From Candidatus Harpocratesius repetitus (GTDB lineage Archaea > Asgardarchaeota > Lokiarchaeia > Sigyniarchaeales > Promethearchaeaceae), in assembly GCA_021498095.1 (NCBI GenBank), contig JAIZWK010000001.1:4286768-4318767 (forward strand): a DNA stretch of 32,000 bases, written 5' to 3'. Made by a program: the position numbers and the translations under genes. Under the pieces are notes generated by a model that worked only from the letters and a program-made list of their open reading frames with translations, did not search any database and was not told where the DNA came from. How positions within the stretch are numbered: position 1 is the first letter of the stretch; each line of letters begins with the position of its first letter. Below are positions 1,791 through 32,000 of the stretch, piece after piece.

Positions 1791-3005
1791 TTATTCTTGC
1801 GGTGGCTTAATCAGGTGAAGAATTTCGATAAAATCATCGGGATACAAGATTTTTGGAACAGGATAAGCAGGATTTCCTTCTTTTGCAGCGCGTTCGGCTA
1901 ATAAAGCAAAATCTTTCTCTTGTAATTCTTTGATATATGTTGGAATTCCCATGTTTTTATTAAGATCTTTCACTTTCTGGATGAAAATTTCTGCACCTTC
2001 TTTAGGAGTAGTGTATGATTTAATCAATCCTCCTGCTACTGCCAATTTAGCTAGTTTCTTATAGGCTTTTTCACCAAATGCTTCCAATACATATGGTAAA
2101 ACAACAGCATTTGCCAATCCGTGAGGTACTCCATATAGACCGCCCAAATTATGTGCAATAGCATGGACATAGCCCACAGATGCTCTGGTAAATGCCACAC
2201 CGGCATAAAAAGCGGCTAATGCCATATTATTTCGAGCTTCGAGATTACTACCATTTTGATATACTTCTTCAATATTCTCAAATATTAATTTTGTGGCTTT
2301 TTCTGCAAACCCCCGGATATATTTCGTACTGTGCCATCCAATTGAAGCTTCGACAGCATGGGTTAAAGCGTCCATCCCTGTAGTAGCAGTTATAAAGGGA
2401 GGGAGCCCAACCATTAATCTTGGATCTAAAACTGCAACGTGAGGAATAATATTTAAATCAACAATTGCAAATTTTTCATGTGTTTTAGGATTACTTACAA
2501 CAGCAGCTGCAGTTGTTTCTGAACCCGTTCCAGCAGTTGTTGGAACTGCATAAAAAGGAGGTAATTTTTTTAAAATTGTAAATTGACCCCGCATTTTTAC
2601 CACTGATTTCTTTGGTTTTACAACCCGACACGCAGCTACTTTTGCACAATCCATAGGAGAACCACCGCCAAAAGCAATAAAACCATCGCATTTCTCCTTA
2701 GTATACATTGAATATGCATTTTCAATATTCTCTATTGTTGGATTTGGTTGAACATCATCAAAAACAGCAAAGTTTACATTATGCGTTGATAATGCAGCTT
2801 TTAATGAATCCAATAATCCTAATTGATGCAAATTGGCATCAGTTACAACTAAAACTTTTTTTAACCCATCAGATTTAACACGTTCGGCTAATTGTTCAAT
2901 TGCATTTTCTCCAGAAATTAAATCGGGGTTGGGAAATTTAATGATTTTTATTGCCCCGAGAAAAATAATATGGCGAATACGATATAAAATAGTAAGAAAT
3001 TTCAT
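1791..3005 (-). CDS. Iron-containing alcohol dehydrogenase
   Basis: GGGSPMD, PTTAGTGSE, GMDALTHAVE, HAIAH...HG metal-ligand motifs. Confidence 0.95.
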   Translation of the reverse strand: MKFLTILYRIRHIIFLGAIKIIKFPNPDLISGENAIEQLAERVKSDGLKKVLVVTDANLHQLGLLDSLKAALSTHNVNFAVFDDVQPNPTIENIENAYSMYTKEKCDGFIAFGGGSPMDCAKVAACRVVKPKKSVVKMRGQFTILKKLPPFYAVPTTAGTGSETTAAAVVSNPKTHEKFAIVDLNIIPHVAVLDPRLMVGLPPFITATTGMDALTHAVEASIGWHSTKYIRGFAEKATKLIFENIEEVYQNGSNLEARNNMALAAFYAGVAFTRASVGYVHAIAHNLGGLYGVPHGLANAVVLPYVLEAFGEKAYKKLAKLAVAGGLIKSYTTPKEGAEIFIQKVKDLNKNMGIPTYIKELQEKDFALLAERAAKEGNPAYPVPKILYPDDFIEILHLIKPPQE

Positions 3006-3129
3006 GATGAATCACTAGATCTTATTGCACGTGAAATATTTAACTTCTTTCTCCCCCTTATGCAAGAGAAAGTAAAAAAGCACTAATAATTAAGTTAAAA
3101 ATTTTTGTAATTATAAAATAAAAAAAGAA

Positions 3130-4680
3130 TTAATATGTTCGGCCAATACGCCAGTATTCAGTGACAGGTTTCATACAATGAGCACAATAGATCTCTTTTT
3201 CCGAAGAAATCGTCTCATTCAACGCGGGGATGTATTCTTCAGGAATTCCCAAGAATTTTAATCCTTCTAAACGTTGTTCCACCGCAGCTGCACAAGATTC
3301 AGATCCACAAAATGGAATTTCTGCAGTCCCTTTTCCTTCATCAATAAAATTCAAAGCTTCTTCTAAGTCATTTGTTCGTAAATTCCAATCACTATGGCGC
3401 TTTTTAGCTGATTTCCACATATCTGATTGAATTAAATTAAGTAATTTTCTTAATTCTTCTACTGCATTATTCTGATGAATAAATATCTTTTCTTTAGTAT
3501 CTCGGCGAACTAAGCACACATTTTCTTTTTGAACGTCTCTTGGTCCAATTTCAACTCGCACAGGAACACCACGCAATTCCCAATGAAAATATTTTCTTCC
3601 AGGACTTATTTCACGTAGATCAATACGAACACGAAATCCCGCTTCTTTTAATGACTTAAATAAGGAATTGGCTGCATCCAATACAGGTTTTTCTTTATTT
3701 TTAAACAAGATAGGAATAATAACCACTTCAATAGGAGCCACTCTCGGAGGAAGTTTTAAGCCGAAATCATCCCCATGAGAAGCAACAAGTGCTGCAATAG
3801 CGCGTTCACTAATTCCATAACAAGTTTGATGGACATATTCTTGTTTTCCTTCCGCAGTTTCATATTTAATATCAAAGGTTTTTCCAAATGTCTGCCCTAA
3901 ATTATGTACGGTACCTATTTGTAAAGCTTTATGTGTGATAGGAAAGATGCAATCAAAAGCGATCGTGTAATTTGCACCTGGAAAGGTATCCCATTTCGGA
4001 CGCTGTGAAATCACATAAGGAACTCCCATTGCATCGAAAAATGATCGGTAACATTGAATAGCTTCTCGAATTTGTTCTTCACATTCTTCAGCAGTAGCAT
4101 GATAAGTATGAGCTTCTTTGAATGTTGTGATCTCTCGAACACGGATCAAAGGACGAGTATTTTTTCCTTCATAACGAAATGTATTCACAATTTGATATGT
4201 TTTTAAGGGTAAATCTTGATGAGAACGGATCCATAGCTGAGCCATGGGATACATTACAGTTTCTGATGTAGGTCGAAGAGCTAACTTTATATCTAATGGT
4301 TTTGTTCCACCATCTTTTACCCAATATACTTCTTCTTCAAACCCTTTTACGGTTTCGGCTTCTTTCATAAATTGTGGTTCGGGGATCAGAAGGGGGAATA
4401 ACATTTCATCATGCGGGACAGGTGTATTGTCTAGTAAATCTCGTATAATTTGAAATGAATATTGTCGGATTTTAAACCCGTAGGGTAACCAAACGCCACA
4501 TCCTTTCAAATTGTATCGGTAATCTATAATTCCAGCATCAAATAATACTTGATTAAACCACTCACTGAAATTCTCAAATGGAGGAAGTCCTTTTTCAATT
4601 TGGTTTTTTTTTGATTGTTTTGTGGCTTTCTTTGTACTTTTCATATTATTTTCTTTTCTTTCAGCTTTTTCAGAAGTCAT
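3130..4680 (-). CDS. proS: Proline--tRNA ligase, archaeal/eukaryotic type
   Basis: [44 protein letters not shown], anticodon-binding domain and C-terminal CxxxxC...CxxC. Start set at ATG 4680 (MTSEK); the track's 54 upstream codons overlap the neighbouring gene and leader. Confidence 0.95.
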
Positions 4681-5445: not shown

Positions 5446-5734
5446 GAGGTTATAGCAGAATTCGAAAAATTGAAGAAAATTCGGAAATCTTGCATCATTT
5501 ATCCATAAACTCCAAATCTATCCCAATTTTAAAATTGTCGAAAAATCGTTTAAGAAAAATATATATAATTAAGTCAATAATTCAAGGAAAAATGATGGAA
5601 ATGTGAAATTCTTGACCGCATTTAAGGGTTTAAAAGTGCCAACTCAAATAGTAATTGGATGCGCAGGAGTATTGTCGAAAATATTGGCCCAAAAGATAGA
5701 ATTTGATTAAGATAAAAAAAATTGCTAGAGCCTC
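5446..5734. mobile_element. MITE-like element, copy 1 (289 bp), inverted relative to copies 2 and 3
   Basis: Ends GAGGTTATAGCA...TGCTAGAGCCTC (10/12 inverted match). Flanked by TATT (5442-5445 and 5735-5738). About 96% identical to the reverse complement of 15288-15576 (about 12 mismatches, hand count). Confidence 0.9.
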
Positions 5735-15246: not shown

Positions 15247-15287
15247 TATTACTTATACTTATTTTTTTTTATTTTGAATTTATTTAA

Positions 15288-15576
15288 GAAGCTCTAGCAA
15301 TTTTTTTTATCTTAATCAAATTCTATCTTTTGGACCAATATTCTCGACAATATTCCAGCGCATCCAATTACTATTTGAGTTGGCAATTTTAAAACATTAA
15401 ATGCGGTCAAGAATTTCACATTTCCATCATTTTTCTTTTAATTATTGACTTATTTATATATATTTTTCTTAAAAGATTTTTCGACAATTTTAAAATTGGG
15501 ATAGATTTGGAGTTTATGGATAAATGATGCAAGATTTCCGAATTTTCTTCAATTTTTCGAATTCTGCTATAACCTC
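15288..15576. mobile_element. MITE-like element, copy 2 (289 bp)
   Basis: Ends GAAGCTCTAGCA...TGCTATAACCTC, flanked by TTAA (15284-15287 and 15577-15580). Inverted near-identical copy of 5446-5734. Confidence 0.9.
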
Positions 15577-15627
15577 TTAATTATTACCAAAATATATTTA
15601 TGAGCACCATTTCCATTTTATATTAAG

Positions 15628-19445: not shown

Positions 19446-22400
19446 TTGAGCTCTTCAATGGAAATTCCTGAAATAATTCTTGTTTCTCCGAAATCACTTC
19501 AGCAATATGCACAAAAAACGGCCCGTAATTTGAAAAGCGGAACAGCTTCTGAAATAACTTATTATGATGACTTTAAGCAATTTTTAGAGACAATTTTCCC
19601 ACCATCAAAGGGATACTTAATTCAATCAGGTTATCACATTCCAGGATCTCAAAATAAACCAGATATGACAGTTACCTTCAATGGAATTGTATTATTTCAT
19701 ATTGAAGCTAAAAAACCTTATACACCCATAGAAGAAATTATCGCATATAAACCTGGATCACGGCTATACAATCAAATACAAAGATATCAAAACGAAGGAA
19801 CCCAAGTTCTTTTAACCGACTTTCTTAATCTCTGGATAGTTAAACCTCCGAAAGATAAATCAACAAATTCGAACAAATTGGAAAGAAATAAGGTTAAATT
19901 TCAATTTTCCTGCCGTCTTCTTGAAGAAAAAACATCACATGACCTTATTCCTGCTCAAAATGCTCCACAACATCTTCAAGAATTATTAAACATCACTTGT
20001 GCGGAACACCTTCAGAGTATCTCAAATGCAAGGAAATTAATTTATCATCTGACAAACATTGCGAAAAATATCAAAGAAAAAACAATTTCGCTTATCAATG
20101 CTCGAAAAACATTAAAGAAACTAACACCATCAGAGAAGAGTGCGGCAGATTATCTGTTACAAATCAAAGAAGATTTTGCCAAATCCATATTTAAAGAAGA
20201 ACATGAGCCAGAAACAAAGATGTTTGCAGATCTTTTTGCTCAAACCATTGTTTATGGTGCATTTTCCGCGTGGATCAAATATTCGCAGAACCAACACAAC
20301 AAACAGAATTGTTCTTTTAATCTTCAAATAGTGGGCGATTACCTCCCATTTGGAAGTTTCTTAAGGGACTTGTTTTTAAATCTGAAAAATAAGACGCCTA
20401 AAGAATTTAGGTCTCTACTGCAAGAAATGGAATTGCAATTCCAAAAAACCAAGTTTACTCCGATTATTAATAATTCTGAGACCCTAATCACTACATTCTA
20501 CAGCGATTTTCTTAGATTATATGATCCAAAAACAGCAAAGGAAAGAGGTGTAGTTTACACACCTTATGAAATTGTTCACTTTATCATTGAAGGCATTGAT
20601 TTTCTGTTAAAACGCTGGATGAATAAACCTATGGGGATTCTTTCATCAACAAAACATAAAATCATTCCTACTAAACATTTTTCTTCAATTTCCAGCACAA
20701 AATTAATTCAATCAAAATTAGATAAAAGTATTAAAAAATTCCAAATTCCCATTGATCGTTTACGAATTTTAGATCCAGCAGCTGGAACTATGGCTTTTGC
20801 TTCAGGGTTGCTCCATGTTGCTAAAGAAAAAATATCAGAAAAATTTCCAGACCAACCAAGTCTTGCTCAGCAAGAATTTCATCATTGGGTAACAAATGAA
20901 TTTTTCGAAAATGTCTATGCTTTTGAAATTTTAATGGCACCCTATGTATTAGGGCATATTCGTACATATCTATCTTTAGAAAATTTGGGGTTAACATTAA
21001 ATGCGGAAAATTATCCACTTAAATCCTACTTAATGAATACCCTTATGAGTCCTCCAAAAAATAAAGCGTTAGATGAATGGATCTTCCACAATGCTGAAAT
21101 TGGTAAAGAAATTAAAGAAGCCCTAAGAATTCGCGATGATAAAGAGATTTTCGTAATTATGGGCAATCCCCCTTATAATTTAAGCAGTCAAAACGATTGT
21201 AAATGGATAAATGAGAAAATAATGGATTACAAAGAGGGATTGCATGAACGAAATAAGAAAATCCTTTCTGATGATTACGTTAAATTCATACGATTTGCAC
21301 AATGGAAAATAGAAAAGGTAGGACGGGGAATTGTTGCATTTATCACAAATAGTCGCTATTTAGATGGTCAAATGTTTTCTGTTATGCGACAATCATTACA
21401 GAATACCTTCGATCATATTTACATAGTGAATTTACATGGGGATTATCGGAAAAAAGAAACAGGAAATCCATTTGATATAAAGGTAGGAGTCTGCATTGCG
21501 TTTATGGTTAGAATTGATAATAAAACACCAAAAAATGCCGCCATTCATTATATGGATGTTCCACACCCGACTAAAGAAGAAAAATTTCAAATATTAGGGA
21601 AGGGTTTTAATGAACGACAATTTAAACTGCTCCCACAAACACCAAAATCATATTTTATTGATATTGATACTAGTATGTTAGAGCATTATCAAAATTTTAT
21701 TCCAATTGATGAATTTTTTAAAGCGCGACCAATAAGCGGCATAATGGCAGGAAAAGATCGATTGGTCATCGATTGTGATATAGATAATCTTCATCAAAAT
21801 ATGCATGCATTTTTCAATAAAGATTATTCACAATTAGATAAATGGAAAATCCGATATAATAATACTAAATCATGGCAACGTGACCGTGTATTTCAAACAA
21901 CTAATTTTCAAAGAGCGATAAAATCCATTCGTCCCATGTTATACAGAGGTTGGGATTATCGATTTATTGTTTATGATAGATCTATTGTTGAAGGACATCG
22001 AATGGGTTATATTGATCAAATATCTCCTGAAAATCCTGCAATTACAGTAAGTAAATCTTCTCGGAAATCAAAATTCTGTACTGCTTTCATCGCCGATGAG
22101 CTTATTGAAAAATGTTATATGAGTGTAACCGATACTGCATATGCCTTTCTATTACGATATAAAGGAAAATCAAATGTAATTGTTCCAAAATTGCCATATC
22201 CAGTTAATGGAGATGCTCTTTTTTATTATATCTATGCTATCTTGCATTGCCCATTATATCGAACCAGATATGATGAACTTCTTCGCAAAGGTTTCCCACG
22301 CATCCCTATACCCAGTAAAGCACTAATATTTGAAAACCTTAGTCGTTTAGGCAAAAAATTGGCAGATCTTCACCTTTTAAAAATAACAGTAGATCCTAAA

Positions 22401-22865
22401 CTAGAAACTGCTGATATTGAACCGAAAAAATGGTTAGTGAAAGATTTTTACTTTGATAAAAGCACACAAACACTCTTTTTCGATGGAAACCCTGAAAAGA
22501 ATTCGAAGAACGTAAAAAAATCAAAAGAATCGAAGAACTCAAAAAAGAATGCTAATGGTTTCCAATCAAAAGAAATATTTAAATCAAATAGCCAAAATTC
22601 TTCTATTCCCTGGATTCGACCAATAACACTTGAAATGTGGGAATATTCAATTGGTGGAATTCCTCAAATTGCTCAATTTCTTAAAAGTCGCACATATTCC
22701 CCTATACGTAAATGGAATTCAATTCAGCGATCACTTTCTTATGAAGAACTGATGTACTTATTAAAAATGATTACAGCTATTAAGCAAAGCCTCACAGTTT
22801 TACCAGAAATTGATTCGTATTATGCAAAAATGGATATAATTGAGGAAAATAAGGATAATTTGTAA
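19446..22865 (+). CDS. Type IIG restriction-modification enzyme (fused nuclease, N6-adenine MTase and type-ISP-like target recognition domain)
   Basis: N-terminal PD...EAK nuclease motif (KPDMT...HIEAK), GVVYTP, ILDPAAGT (motif I), GNPPY (motif IV), C-terminal YRGWD.R...FPRIP...IGG. No helicase motifs. Alternative start ATG 19458. Confidence 0.88.
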   Translation: MSSSMEIPEIILVSPKSLQQYAQKTARNLKSGTASEITYYDDFKQFLETIFPPSKGYLIQSGYHIPGSQNKPDMTVTFNGIVLFHIEAKKPYTPIEEIIAYKPGSRLYNQIQRYQNEGTQVLLTDFLNLWIVKPPKDKSTNSNKLERNKVKFQFSCRLLEEKTSHDLIPAQNAPQHLQELLNITCAEHLQSISNARKLIYHLTNIAKNIKEKTISLINARKTLKKLTPSEKSAADYLLQIKEDFAKSIFKEEHEPETKMFADLFAQTIVYGAFSAWIKYSQNQHNKQNCSFNLQIVGDYLPFGSFLRDLFLNLKNKTPKEFRSLLQEMELQFQKTKFTPIINNSETLITTFYSDFLRLYDPKTAKERGVVYTPYEIVHFIIEGIDFLLKRWMNKPMGILSSTKHKIIPTKHFSSISSTKLIQSKLDKSIKKFQIPIDRLRILDPAAGTMAFASGLLHVAKEKISEKFPDQPSLAQQEFHHWVTNEFFENVYAFEILMAPYVLGHIRTYLSLENLGLTLNAENYPLKSYLMNTLMSPPKNKALDEWIFHNAEIGKEIKEALRIRDDKEIFVIMGNPPYNLSSQNDCKWINEKIMDYKEGLHERNKKILSDDYVKFIRFAQWKIEKVGRGIVAFITNSRYLDGQMFSVMRQSLQNTFDHIYIVNLHGDYRKKETGNPFDIKVGVCIAFMVRIDNKTPKNAAIHYMDVPHPTKEEKFQILGKGFNERQFKLLPQTPKSYFIDIDTSMLEHYQNFIPIDEFFKARPISGIMAGKDRLVIDCDIDNLHQNMHAFFNKDYSQLDKWKIRYNNTKSWQRDRVFQTTNFQRAIKSIRPMLYRGWDYRFIVYDRSIVEGHRMGYIDQISPENPAITVSKSSRKSKFCTAFIADELIEKCYMSVTDTAYAFLLRYKGKSNVIVPKLPYPVNGDALFYYIYAILHCPLYRTRYDELLRKGFPRIPIPSKALIFENLSRLGKKLADLHLLKITVDPKLETADIEPKKWLVKDFYFDKSTQTLFFDGNPEKNSKNVKKSKESKNSKKNANGFQSKEIFKSNSQNSSIPWIRPITLEMWEYSIGGIPQIAQFLKSRTYSPIRKWNSIQRSLSYEELMYLLKMITAIKQSLTVLPEIDSYYAKMDIIEENKDNL

Positions 22866-27018: not shown

Positions 27019-28230
27019 ATGGTCAAAATTACACCAATTTCCCCATATTTACCCATAAACCCAGAAGAATTTTGCACAAACCCATATGATGTCATTGGGA
27101 AAGAAGAAGAACATCAATTAAAAAAAAATCCTAACTCACTTGTACATCTTATTCTTCCTGAGGGTGAAGGTGAAGAAATATATAAAGATGCTAAAAAAGC
27201 CTACGAACGTTTCAAAGCAGAAAATTTGATTAAAAAAGCCGCACAACCAAGCATTTTTGTGTATAGGCAAGAATCTCCCGAATTTAGCCAAGAAGGTCTT
27301 ATAATGGGTGTTGCGCTTCAGGATTATGAAGATGGAAATATAGTCAGACATGAACATACTCGTGAGAAACCATTGAAAGATCGAACCAAGCATATTGCTA
27401 CAATAAAAGCGGCAACTGGATTAGTCTGGAATGTTTTTCAAGCAGACGCAGAGATAAAAAAACTAATTGAGCAAATGAAACAAACAACACCAAAATTCGA
27501 TTTTCACATGAAAGGTTATCGCCAGTTATTATGGCAAATTACAGATGAAAAGATCATTACAAACCTGAAAGAACTATTTGCAGATCGGAAAATATTTATT
27601 GCTGATGGTCATCATAGGGCAGCCAGTGCAGCAGAATATCGAAAAATGAAACTGGCAGAAGGTGCAGATCCAAACAGTGAACATTCATGGCAATACCTGA
27701 TGACATACGTTTCTTCTGATGATCAAATTTGGATTTTACCATATAATCGGGTTATCCGAAAGTTACCAATGTCAAAAGATGAATTTATCGAGAAATTGAG
27801 GGAAGTATTCACAATTGAATTGGTGGAAAAAGCCTTTAATCCTGATAAAAAACATGTAATGGCAATTTGTGTTCAAGGACAATGGCTGAAAGCAACAGTT
27901 AAAGATCAAAACTTTACCGATCCACGAGACGCATTAGATGTTGCAATTTTGCAAGATCGCGTATTAGATCCAATTTTAGGAATAAAAGATATCCGTAACG
28001 ACAAGAATATCTTTTTCGTAGGTGAAGTGAAATATTATCGAAATCCCGAATTAATGAAGACAGAATTTATTGAAAAACAAGGTAATGACGTATTCTTTAA
28101 CTTGTTTGCGGTAGATATTCATGATATTGAAAAAATCGGTGGTGCAGGTGGAGTAATGCCTCCTAAAAGCACCTGGTTTGAACCTAAATTGTTATCTGGA
28201 TTGGCAATCTATCCTCTTGATGAAGATTGA
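27019..28230 (+). CDS. DUF1015 family protein (ParB-like fold)
   Basis: PYDVI, HEHT...P..DR, IADGHHR, MPPKSTWFEPKL.SGL. Confidence 0.9.
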   Translation: MVKITPISPYLPINPEEFCTNPYDVIGKEEEHQLKKNPNSLVHLILPEGEGEEIYKDAKKAYERFKAENLIKKAAQPSIFVYRQESPEFSQEGLIMGVALQDYEDGNIVRHEHTREKPLKDRTKHIATIKAATGLVWNVFQADAEIKKLIEQMKQTTPKFDFHMKGYRQLLWQITDEKIITNLKELFADRKIFIADGHHRAASAAEYRKMKLAEGADPNSEHSWQYLMTYVSSDDQIWILPYNRVIRKLPMSKDEFIEKLREVFTIELVEKAFNPDKKHVMAICVQGQWLKATVKDQNFTDPRDALDVAILQDRVLDPILGIKDIRNDKNIFFVGEVKYYRNPELMKTEFIEKQGNDVFFNLFAVDIHDIEKIGGAGGVMPPKSTWFEPKLLSGLAIYPLDED

Positions 28231-28997: not shown

Positions 28998-29201
28998 GTT
29001 AAGAATCTCCTTTTTGTACTACTATATTTCATATATCTGAAATGTAAGTTTGGTAATGGAAGGACGAAGCCATTATTTAAAAATGACAACATCATAGCGA
29101 TTTACTAAATCTTCCATTGAGATTCTCTAAAAATATTGAATATATAATGGTTTTGAAATAATACACAAATTTTTTTCATATGAAAAAAAAATTTTTTTTA
29201 G

Positions 29202-29490
29202 GAGGTTCTAGCAACTTCTTTATTTTTGACAGAATTTTCATTTTATTCTTTCATTTTCCGACAATAATCAAACTTATCCAAGAATTATTTCAGTCGGCAG
29301 AAATGAACTTTAGAAAATTTAATGATGGGTCGATTTTTGACTATTATTAATCAAATTATAGTTGAATTTGATAAAAAAAGTTCTAAATTTTTGATCGACA
29401 AATTTTAAATTTGGATGGAATGTTGGTAAATGCGTAAATTATGCAGGATTTTTATTTTTTTATTAATCTATCAAATGTTGATAAAGGCTC
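29202..29490. mobile_element. MITE-like element, copy 3 (289 bp, diverged)
   Basis: Left end GAGGTTCTAGCA, degenerate right end TGATAAAGGCTC, flanked by TTAG (29198-29201 and 29491-29494). Ungapped about 56% identity (163/289, hand count) to copy 2, with conserved blocks at identical offsets. Confidence 0.8.
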
Positions 29491-29510
29491 TTAGAACAAA
29501 GCATTTTTAA

Positions 29511-31065
29511 CATTAACGATGTAATTGGTTTTTTATAGTTTTTCTGGTCTTGAAATTTTTATAAAATCTTAATTTTGATTCAATTTCGGTAGAATTGTTC
29601 ATATTTTACTTCTTTGCATGGATGCATTACAATTTTGAGAGATAAAGGGAATAATTTAAAAGCTACGCTTTCTTACCCTTGGATATGTACACAAATCTTA
29701 GAGGAAATCCATCGGCAGCCACCGATATCGGAAAAATTATTCCCGATCAGATTAATCCGCAGTTACTTTTAGATATTGCGGAAATGGTAGATCCTTTGGT
29801 TTTCCAAAAATTGCCTTCAAAACGAAGTGGGTTTTCCTATACGATCTTCGTTCTATTTGCATGTTGTATGCAAATATTAAGACTCTCGCCCCGACACACA
29901 TCAGAAATTTTCCAAGAAAAGTGTTCTCGCGCTCAAATTTCATTTCAATCCTATTCAGTCACCAAATTCTCAAATGGTAAACAACGGAGATTCTTCCCTG
30001 ATCAACCTGCTTTTTCTCGATGCCTCCAAACCTTGTCTAAGTTAGATTTAGTTGAAGAATTTTGGAATTCTGTACTTTTGGCACATTTATTAATTCTTAA
30101 ATCCTTGAAAATTGTCAAAGCGGATTTAAAATTAATTGCAGATTACACCGATACACCCTGTAAAAAAAATATGCAAGATCCATATTGTTTTGGAAAGAAA
30201 GAAGGTAAAACAGTTCATCGTACGCTTAGTTTTTCCGTTATTTCAGGTGATTTTCATCAAATGATTGCCAATTTCAAAATTAAAAAGCATCAAGATAAAC
30301 TCCCTTTGTTTCACAGTATCCATCAAATTCTAGTTTCTAACGGCTTTTCTATAAAATATGCCATGCTTGACAGAGGTTTTTATCGTAAACGAATACTAAA
30401 GTTCTTTCAGCGGAAGCACATAACCGTGATTATGCCTGGAAGAAAATGTGCGCAGACAAAACAAAAAATTATGAACTACTTGAATGGAATTGGCAAAAGA
30501 TACTGCAAAGGTGTAATTAAGGGTAAATACGTAAAAAAAAAGGGGTTTTCACCCATTAAATTCGATCTTCTGCTTGTTGCTAAACGCAGATTTAATTTAA
30601 AAGAAATCATTCAAGATTTTAATCAAAAAAAGATCAGTGAACAAGTCGCCAGCAGCCGTATTTTTCCCCTAATTATTATGTTCAGCTCAAAATCTGGCAT
30701 AAAAACCCTACACGGCAACGAGAATTATATTCGAGATCTCTATCGCCAAAGATGGTTAATAGAAATCGCATTTCGTGAGATGAATCGGTTTGGCATTGCA
30801 CAAAAGGTGCAAGATCGCAATAGCCGGCTGAATATTATGGGAATACGGTGCTTTTTGTACAATATTTGGCAGACACAGCGATTTCTAATAAAAAGAAACG
30901 ATCCTACCGCAAAAGACTTAGAATTGAATGAATTTCTTGGAATGTGCTCAAATCATCGGTATCCATTATATTTATCATCCATGAATTGAAAGGAGTAATA
31001 TTATCGCGAACAAACGAATAGATTAATCTTAAATAGAAGAAAAAGGATCAATTACATAGTGAATG
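29511..31065 (+). mobile_element. Complete IS4-like insertion sequence, 1555 bp
   Basis: TIRs CATTAACGATGTAATTG (29511-29527) and reverse complement CATTCACTATGTAATTG (31049-31065), 15/17 match. 8-bp direct repeat ATTTTTAA at 29503-29510 and 31066-31073. Single transposase gene inside. Confidence 0.88.
29679..30989 (+). CDS. DDE transposase, IS4/ISH3-like
   Basis: IADYTD, MLDRGFY, YRQRWLIEIAFR (Y-2-R-3-E motif). TTG start at 29679 or ATG at 29685. Confidence 0.9.
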   Translation: MDMYTNLRGNPSAATDIGKIIPDQINPQLLLDIAEMVDPLVFQKLPSKRSGFSYTIFVLFACCMQILRLSPRHTSEIFQEKCSRAQISFQSYSVTKFSNGKQRRFFPDQPAFSRCLQTLSKLDLVEEFWNSVLLAHLLILKSLKIVKADLKLIADYTDTPCKKNMQDPYCFGKKEGKTVHRTLSFSVISGDFHQMIANFKIKKHQDKLPLFHSIHQILVSNGFSIKYAMLDRGFYRKRILKFFQRKHITVIMPGRKCAQTKQKIMNYLNGIGKRYCKGVIKGKYVKKKGFSPIKFDLLLVAKRRFNLKEIIQDFNQKKISEQVASSRIFPLIIMFSSKSGIKTLHGNENYIRDLYRQRWLIEIAFREMNRFGIAQKVQDRNSRLNIMGIRCFLYNIWQTQRFLIKRNDPTAKDLELNEFLGMCSNHRYPLYLSSMN

Positions 31066-31245
31066 ATTTTTAAAAAAAAAAAAATTATTAGGATGGATTT
31101 TTAAAAGCAAGGATCAATTAGTACCTTGTGTTTTTTTGATGTTATATCCATAATTTCTGGAACAATTCCGATTATGAAGAGGATATTCTCACTTTAGATC
31201 ATTTCACATATATTTTAATACTTTAGTCTCTCACAAGCGAGGAAT

Positions 31246-31259
31246 CCAAAAGTTTAAAT
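31246..31259 (+). promoter_or_regulatory. BRE/TATA promoter, consistent with a leaderless transposase mRNA
   Basis: CCAAAAG-TTTAAAT ending 22 nt before ATG 31282. Confidence 0.5.
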
Positions 31260-31281
31260 CACAAATATTCTTTGTAGAAAT

Positions 31282-32000
31282 ATGGTCGGTCGTAAAATAA
31301 AGCCTTTCACACCATTATATTCTGAAATACTCATTGAATTGCCGGAAAGAAGAAACATCCTTTTAGAAAACATTCCAATCAGATGTCCTATTTGTAGATC
31401 ACTGCATGTCAGGTCAAATGGTACACAAAAGCGAGGAAAAACACGCGTAGTTTGTTACCGTTGTAATAATCGAGACTGTCCTTTTCGTATTCACTCTGCT
31501 GGAGGAAAACAATTCACAATTTATTCTTCCTTATTTGTTTGTAACATTCTTTATTCTTATTTGGAGATTATTATGTCAAATCTATTTCATGCTCATGGAA
31601 AATTAGTTGATATCGCCCGGAATCACCAGATTTCGCCCAGCTTATTGAGCTATCTTTACACAAAATTTCAGCAAGCCATAATCAAACAGGTTGGTCTCCA
31701 AAACCTCGTAAATAAAAAGCAAAAAGACCATGCTATCGCAATCGATGAAACATTTTTAAAAATAAATGGAAAAACTTATATTATAATGGCGACAGGCTAT
31801 GCGAGTCATAAAATCTTAGGATTAAAAGTATTTCAAACAAGAAAAATGGAAGATATGCTCGAAGTTTTTAACGAAGCAGAAAAAAACGCATCAAAACCGA
31901 TTACGATAATCACTGCAGATGCTTGGAATGGAACACAAGCATTAGCTAAATATCTTGATCGACCTATTACTATCATTATTCACAAACATAAAAAGCCTTA
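31282..32000 (+). CDS. Zn-ribbon DDE transposase, IS6/IS1-like, 3'-truncated and missing from the ORF track
   Basis: Open frame MVGRKIKPF...RCPICRSLHVRSNG...CYRCNNRDC...(HTH)...IAIDETFLKINGKTYIIMA...ITADAW..., running off the window end. Confidence 0.85.
   Translation, partial: MVGRKIKPFTPLYSEILIELPERRNILLENIPIRCPICRSLHVRSNGTQKRGKTRVVCYRCNNRDCPFRIHSAGGKQFTIYSSLFVCNILYSYLEIIMSNLFHAHGKLVDIARNHQISPSLLSYLYTKFQQAIIKQVGLQNLVNKKQKDHAIAIDETFLKINGKTYIIMATGYASHKILGLKVFQTRKMEDMLEVFNEAEKNASKPITIITADAWNGTQALAKYLDRPITIIIHKHKKP

Follow-up and report, generated by a model that had tools for sequence, protein, structure and literature searches.

A 289-bp MITE of the Asgard archaeon Candidatus Harpocratesius repetitus and the spacing of its long terminal arms

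The 289-bp element at its locus and in the genome

The window analysed here is a stretch of 32 000 nucleotides of the Candidatus Harpocratesius repetitus genome (contig JAIZWK010000001.1, positions 4,286,768 to 4,318,767). Three copies of a short repeat were found in it, each of exactly 289 bp and each between two identical flanks (TATT/TATT, TTAA/TTAA and TTAG/TTAG; Table 1). Copies 1 and 2 both belong to subfamily A1 and are 96% alike; copy 3 belongs to subfamily B. The start of copy 2 was set at 15288 and not at 15287, as in the repeat search and the initial annotation, because base 15287 is part of the 4-bp target duplication. In this copy the tip is mutated to GAAG and GTCG to GTTG. When the right arm of copy 3 is read on the minus strand, the geometry of its tip, ATCC and GTCG equals that of the left arm.

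The insertion sequence (IS) that follows copy 3 is present in about nine copies in the genome (77-93% identity). Its transposase matched the Pfam family DDE_Tnp_1, and its best NCBIfam match, ISH3, was below cut-off. This transposase was considered as a partner of the repeat and rejected: other copies of its IS begin at positions corresponding to 29504-29511 of the window, independently of the repeat. A second IS starts further on and has a 98% copy at genome positions 3376349-3377260 (G000:C1, to which all genome positions given below refer). The stretch behind copy 3 is an insertion hot spot. On the other side, copy 3 is preceded at a distance of about 1 kb by a DUF1015 gene. Such a gene also adjoins an IS of the 1825-bp family described below on a metagenome scaffold (ENA; gene at positions 1999-3207), and the two loci may be one and the same neighbourhood in related organisms. 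The window also carries a 1139-aa open reading frame with Type ISP restriction-modification domains. A tRNA was the sole match in an Rfam search of the window.

Table 1. Positions, in window coordinates, of the repeat copies, their parts and the neighbouring features
Feature	Position	Strand	Remarks
Copy 1, MITE subfamily A1	5446..5734	- (inverted)	289 bp; target duplication TATT
Copy 2, MITE subfamily A1	15288..15576	+	289 bp; target duplication TTAA at 15284-15287 and 15577-15580
ORF with Type ISP restriction-modification domains	19446-22865		1139 aa; Type_ISP_C, Eco57I, N6_Mtase
DUF1015 gene	27019-28230
Target-site duplication TTAG of copy 3	left 29198..29201, right 29491-29494		flanks read directly
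Copy 3, MITE subfamily B (GAGG...GCTC)	29202..29490	+	289 bp; ends from copy alignment and target duplication
Left arm of copy 3	29202..29297	+	tip GAGGTTCTAGCA 29202-29213, CGAC 29259-29262, ATCC 29276-29279, GTCG 29293-29296
Centre of copy 3 (element positions 99-193)	29300..29394		same length in A and B, without detectable A-B homology
Right arm of copy 3	29395..29490	-	CGAC 29396-29399, GGAT 29413-29416, tip TGATAAAGGCTC 29479-29490
ISH3-like insertion sequence, ~1.58 kb	29504..31084	+	14 bp from copy 3; 436-aa DDE transposase 29679-30989; unrelated to the MITE
Second insertion sequence (start)	31092-32000

Further copies were collected with BLAST and nhmmer from the genome, which is 4.36 Mb in one contig. 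Subfamily A was found at ~33 loci and subfamily B at ~40, giving 78 loci once merged; together A and B make up, by our arithmetic, ~1% of the genome. The nhmmer searches join the two subfamilies over nearly their full length (E values of 1e-7 to 1e-4), and no intermediate subfamily was found. The tips are inverted repeats, GAGGCTCTAGCA / GAGGTTATAGCA in A and GAGGTTCTAGCA / GAGCCTTTATCA in B, with the common tip GAGGNTCTAGCA at positions 1-12. Genome-wide, 45 elements combine GAG...CTC tips with a perfect 4-bp duplication whose sequence varies by copy and is mostly of the form (A/T)TA(N) (TTAT, ATAA, TTAA, ATAT, TTAG and others). Five A2 copies, all of 288 bp, are identical, a likeness that points to recent activity.

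Near-full-length copies are mostly intergenic (54 of 58, with at most 30 bp of overlap with long ORFs), in a genome 84% of which a crude gene model assigns to genes. Their orientation relative to co-directional neighbour genes is random, without strand bias (19 same, 15 opposite). The longest stop-free frames (48-52 codons) differ in frame or strand among A1, A2 and B; no reading frame is conserved across the three, in agreement with the initial annotation. Contigs of public runs break at the element borders; they list no empty site and no indels, and are silent on expression and excision.

Some copies occur in combinations. Two B-type MITEs of ~603 bp (479211-479813 and 2359475-2360078) have an element of ~314 bp nested inside. 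A and B copies lie 38 bp apart at 2706458-2707073 and about 970 bp apart at 248682-250225; this proximity may result from a common preference for targets, or from hops over short distances. Two candidate composites of 2561 and 3144 bp, each bounded by matching 4-bp flanks, were dismissed, as they are most simply explained by separate insertions at common target words.

Arm architecture and insertion sequences that share it

A direct search of the genome for an autonomous IS, by full-length nhmmer profiles as well as by tip patterns combined with the target duplication, returned none, and no parental IS of the A or the B type was found in it. An IS of 1825 bp was found through a family of arm-like fragments of 200 bp. 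It lies at 2233279-2235103, has a TTAA duplication and a MITE-like tip, and carries ATCC at positions 75-78 and GTCG at 92-95. It sits within a member of a ~360-bp repeat family of about 30 copies, of which the uninterrupted paralogues (e.g. 512461-512815) represent empty sites. The IS encodes an intact protein of 496 aa that scores 31.9 bits with Pfam DDE_Tnp_1 (PF01609; cut-off 23), and its D237, D327 and E393 are invariant among 11 homologues (31-59% identity). With every curated IS family model the protein stays well short of the cut-off; the nearest is IS1182, whose NCBIfam model NF033551 gives 32.3 bits against a cut-off of 270, which leaves the protein outside that family. Two distant homologues of the transposase (32% identity), both single-copy, are also encoded in the genome.

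The arms of the MITEs and of this IS were compared in an ungapped alignment anchored at the tips. All eight arm types (left and right of A1, A2, B and the IS) have GAG at 1-3, ATCC at 75-78 and GTCG at 92-95. Identity between arm types is 39-63%, apart from the same-side arms of A1 and A2 (84-89%). The left arms of A and B are 60% identical and their right arms 63%; MITE arms match IS arms at 39-59%, and the A and B right arms match the right arm of the resident IS at 39-44%. The pattern GAG-N71-ATCC-N13-GTYG has 140 matches in the genome, and forms in which the spacer is shifted by 1-3 bp have 1-6; a stricter form has 101 matches and its reversed control none. Several arms add CGAC at 58-61, which results in a symmetric module, CGAC-N13-ATCC-N13-GTCG (e.g. 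window 29259-29296). The module is also present in an IS relative whose transposase is 37% identical. The module suggests a dimeric or two-domain DNA-binding contact.

Three other genomes of the order share this arm architecture, among them those of Ca. Lokiarchaeum ossiferum (CP104013.1) and Promethearchaeota archaeon CR_4; two of the three are metagenome-assembled genomes (MAGs), and the architecture is also present on metagenome contigs. A phylum-wide pattern search recovered it only in the source genome and these three; single matches elsewhere look like chance, but MAGs rarely assemble repeats, so the search may have missed the architecture in others. Scanning metagenomes with the arm pattern yielded two genuine relatives, both from one sample and both consisting of an unpaired arm, along with six high-GC chance matches. 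The architecture flanks transposase homologues at 48-58% identity. Homologues at 35-37% have differing tips, yet ATCC at 75 and GTCG at 92 are kept on at least one arm. Nearly all of the 87 detectable transposase homologues come from Asgard MAGs or from metagenome contigs of about 1.8-2.3 kb, and are annotated as 'hypothetical' or as a generic transposase; the closest named one, at 82%, is from Ca. Harpocratesius.

Related MITEs with this arm architecture occur in other genomes. One of 313 bp (Lokiarchaeum) was found in six copies belonging to three subfamilies in two species; these are 63-92% identical without gaps and all exactly 313 bp long. Its 119-bp centre is alignable (56-90% identity) and free of indels. 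In CR_4 the related MITE is 336 bp long.

Length conservation and selection against indels

According to the initial annotation, copies 2 and 3 are equal in length, align without gaps at about 56% identity, share five motifs at the same offsets and are near random in the middle. Each of these statements was recovered. Ungapped, the two 289-bp copies are 56.4% identical in a single register, and identity falls to 24-39% at all neighbouring offsets; the subfamily consensus sequences of A and B are 56.1% identical, and MAFFT aligned the plus strands without internal gaps. CGAC at 58, ATCC at 75, GT(C/T)G at 92, CGAC at 195 and GGAT at 212 are in register in both copies. The centre (99-193) is 39% identical between A and B, compared with 33 +/- 4.5% for shuffled sequences (p=0.11).

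Gapped alignment was examined part by part. Allowing gaps added 0 to the score of the right arm and 8 to that of the left arm (p=0.08); where homology is real, gaps bring no improvement. For the whole element the gain was 32 units and looked significant against a letter-permutation control. It was discarded as evidence of indels, as it stems wholly from the centre, and there a dinucleotide-shuffled partner gave an equally good gapped score (p=0.39). With no detectable homology between the A and B centres, the absence of indels cannot be asserted for this part; what can be shown is that its net length is equal in both.

The lengths of the genomic copies do not vary freely. Forty-two of the 58 near-full-length copies are 289 bp long and 12 are 288 bp (seven of them A2), and there is one each of 280, 290, 291 and 293 bp. 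Subfamily B by itself has 29 near-full-length copies, and 23 of them measure exactly 289 bp. The A2 subfamily has a 1-bp deletion at about position 173, in the centre, and its five identical copies indicate that an element of 288 bp is mobile.

Changes in the 58 copies were then divided into those private to one copy, which occurred after insertion and are presumably neutral, and shared variants, which were carried by a transposing element. Over the whole element, 169 substitutions and 12 indels were private and 164 substitutions and one indel were shared (Fisher p=0.003). The arms accounted for 117 substitutions and eight indels among the private changes and for 105 substitutions and no indel among the shared ones (p=0.008), and the centre (99-193) for 52 and four against 59 and one (p=0.20). 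Indels arise in the arms of dead copies yet never spread. The private indel ratio of 0.071 predicts ~7 indels for the divergence between the A and B arms, and none was seen (P~0.001). When this neutral ratio, taken from one genome, was applied to the 313-bp lineage of the others, ~13 indels were expected over the whole element and ~6 in the centre, where none was seen (P~0.002). A simulation with the observed indel spectrum gave a probability of about 0.04-0.11 that the A and B centres have equal net length by chance.

On this evidence selection does act on spacing in the arms, which make up two thirds of the element; for the 95-bp centre the case is only suggestive. Within a lineage, selection probably extends to total length, to about +/-1 bp, with an optimum that varies by lineage. 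The proposal in the initial annotation that selection acts on spacing is thus borne out for the arms, by the contrast between private and propagated changes and by a geometry kept across the IS and across genomes; for the whole 289 bp it is weakened by the 288-bp A2 copies and by the relatives of 313 and 336 bp.

Interpretation and known systems

The 289-bp element is very probably a non-autonomous DDE transposon (MITE) whose arms are held to a fixed spacing. MITEs A and B would owe their movement to a transposase supplied in trans by an IS family specific to Asgard archaea. Each end would be an arm of ~96 bp with recognition points at the tip GAGGNTCTAGCA (1-12), at CGAC (58-61) in many arms, at ATCC (75-78) and at GTCG (92-95), and the transposase, or a transposase oligomer, would contact all of them together. 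Since the same geometry is found beside a transposase gene, a multi-contact transposase binding site is its natural, though predicted, reading. It also fits two of the candidates of the initial annotation, transpososome assembly and a fixed protein-binding scaffold. An indel between recognition points would destroy competence for transposition, so that substitutions spread and indels do not. We infer that the resident 1825-bp IS moves A and B in trans; it may, however, not be the true mobiliser, given that its right arm is so distant from theirs. A and B themselves are best read as descendants of one ancestor that already bore distinct left and right arms, to which the same-side identities point.

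The fixed length would then follow mainly from the arms, as the predicted docking site of fixed geometry takes up ~96 bp at each end and the contacts would fix 2 x ~96 of the 289 bp. The remaining ~95 bp have kept their net length as well, most likely because the arms would have to meet across a stiff loop, put at ~100 bp or more broadly at ~100-150 bp, which would make transposition sensitive to length and twist with a tolerance of +/-1 bp; whether such a loop constrains the centre we regard as evenly balanced. From 289 to 313 bp and from 313 to 336 bp the lineages step by 24 and 23 bp, neither of them a multiple of the 10.5-bp helical turn. One common helical phase across the lineages is not evident and, with three points only, the steps may be a coincidence. 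The in-vivo looping period of supercoiled DNA is reported to be ~11-12 bp, which is nearer to steps of ~23.5 bp than 10.5 bp is. It is conceivable, but rather improbable, that total length is both selected and quantised in steps of ~23.5 bp, with each multi-subfamily lineage exact or within +/-1 bp. If this were true, the arms would have to come together in one rotational orientation over a tight loop formed by the centre, and the element would contain its own ruler for the transpososome of an IS family specific to Asgard archaea, perhaps together with a DNA-bending protein of the host.

Constraint might also be restricted to the arms, the equal length of A and B being inherited from a 289-bp ancestor and kept by luck in the ~95-bp centre. 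This is possible, if somewhat unlikely: compensating indels could have occurred in centres that share no detectable homology, the simulated chance of zero net change is not negligible at 0.04-0.11, the centre test within the genome gave p=0.20, A2 is active at 288 bp, and relatives have settled at 313 and 336 bp. Against it, the 313-bp lineage has kept its 119-bp centre free of indels over three subfamilies where ~6 were expected (P~0.002), and luck would be required twice for an exact length held in two independent lineages. A separate origin of A and B, as internal deletions of two related ISs whose equal length is a coincidence or a convergence on an optimum, would account for centres that are unrelated in sequence and for the lack of an intermediate subfamily in the genome. 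It is nevertheless very unlikely, as the left arms of A and B, and likewise their right arms, resemble each other (60% and 63%) more than the right arms resemble that of the resident IS (39-44%), two arbitrary deletions would match exactly in about 1 case in 100 by our estimate, and the genome contains no parental IS of either type.

Two readings in which the host sets the length would fit a small part of the data. The fixed length with conserved blocks and the intergenic placement would suit a structured non-coding RNA, or else a regulatory cassette that is strand-specific, with a length set by an RNA or protein-scaffold function for the host. We hold this to be extremely improbable: fold z-scores against shuffles were -1.70, -0.02 and -0.57, the predicted structures of A and B differ, no Rfam family was matched at gathering score, orientation relative to genes is random, and the target duplications together with an IS with matching ends account for the dispersed copies. 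The RNA candidate of the initial annotation therefore found no backing. Its histone or hypernucleosome candidate fared no better. Asgard archaea encode histones, and a length set by the wrapping of the element around a defined histone multimer agrees with the fixed length in a general way, with nothing specific in its favour. The conserved spacing belongs, however, to arms common to a 1.8-kb IS of unrelated total length, and by our arithmetic none of the lengths 289, 313 and 336 divides evenly into the ~30-bp units of a histone dimer, so that a chromatin ruler is scarcely credible.

Read as a MITE moved through long arms of fixed geometry, the element can be set beside known systems. It resembles other prokaryotic MITEs, such as the Correia/NEMIS elements of Neisseria and SM1-SM4 of Sulfolobus, in being small, non-coding, multicopy and intergenic with inverted repeats and target duplications. 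It differs from them in its ends, which are predicted to be ~96-bp arms with three or four fixed recognition points, and in an exact length held across subfamilies at 56-69% identity. Length variants of Correia elements are known. With the DDE ISs of the IS4/IS5 superfamily it shares, through its IS, a DDE_Tnp_1 match above the Pfam cut-off and the conserved D, D and E; IS5-group elements likewise make 4-bp target duplications at (A/T)TA(N)-type sites. Long structured ends, present in the Asgard IS family, are atypical of the IS4 and IS5 families. For prokaryotic MITEs the presumed source of mobility is the transposase of an IS whose ends match theirs, acting in trans; the inverted repeats of ISs are ~10-50 bp long (PMC10969869).

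Ends with several contacts are familiar from unrelated transposases. In Sleeping Beauty, Tc3 (IR/DR type), Mu and Tn7 the transposase makes more than one contact per end, and the spacing between outer and inner sites matters for activity; the sites proposed here are deduced from conservation. For very short IS50 derivatives, both the length of the DNA separating the ends and its helical phase are reported to matter. That is an experimental result on a bacterial IS4-family element, whereas the constraint described here is deduced from evolutionary length, and the lineage lengths do not follow a 10.5-bp period.

The MITE itself is an ordinary and familiar kind of element; its rigid architecture is unusual. 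The publication in which Ca. Harpocratesius repetitus received its name, chosen for its repeats, puts these at 4% and mentions neither MITEs nor insertion sequences. MITEs of Asgard archaea are unmentioned there and in the review PMC10969869, where Asgard hosts are absent from the archaeal MITE hosts given. An Asgard IS family with long ends of fixed geometry appears to be undescribed in the searchable literature. New here are the comparison of private with propagated indels, the CGAC/ATCC/GTCG module kept down to 35% transposase identity, the relatives in named genomes with their 313- and 336-bp lineages, and the non-homologous centres of A and B.

Families of the A and B type would explain many of the 'conserved intergenic repeats' of Lokiarchaeial genomes, and such MITE families need to be masked ahead of searches for regulatory RNAs. 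The division into private and spread changes is a simple test applicable to sequence alone, by which indels, and not substitutions, would seem to abolish mobility. Transposases of the family have diverged to 35% identity with the spacing of the arms kept exact. From this a multi-contact transpososome is predicted that differs from the short-end IS4/IS5 models, and the multi-point arms are a concrete target for footprinting.
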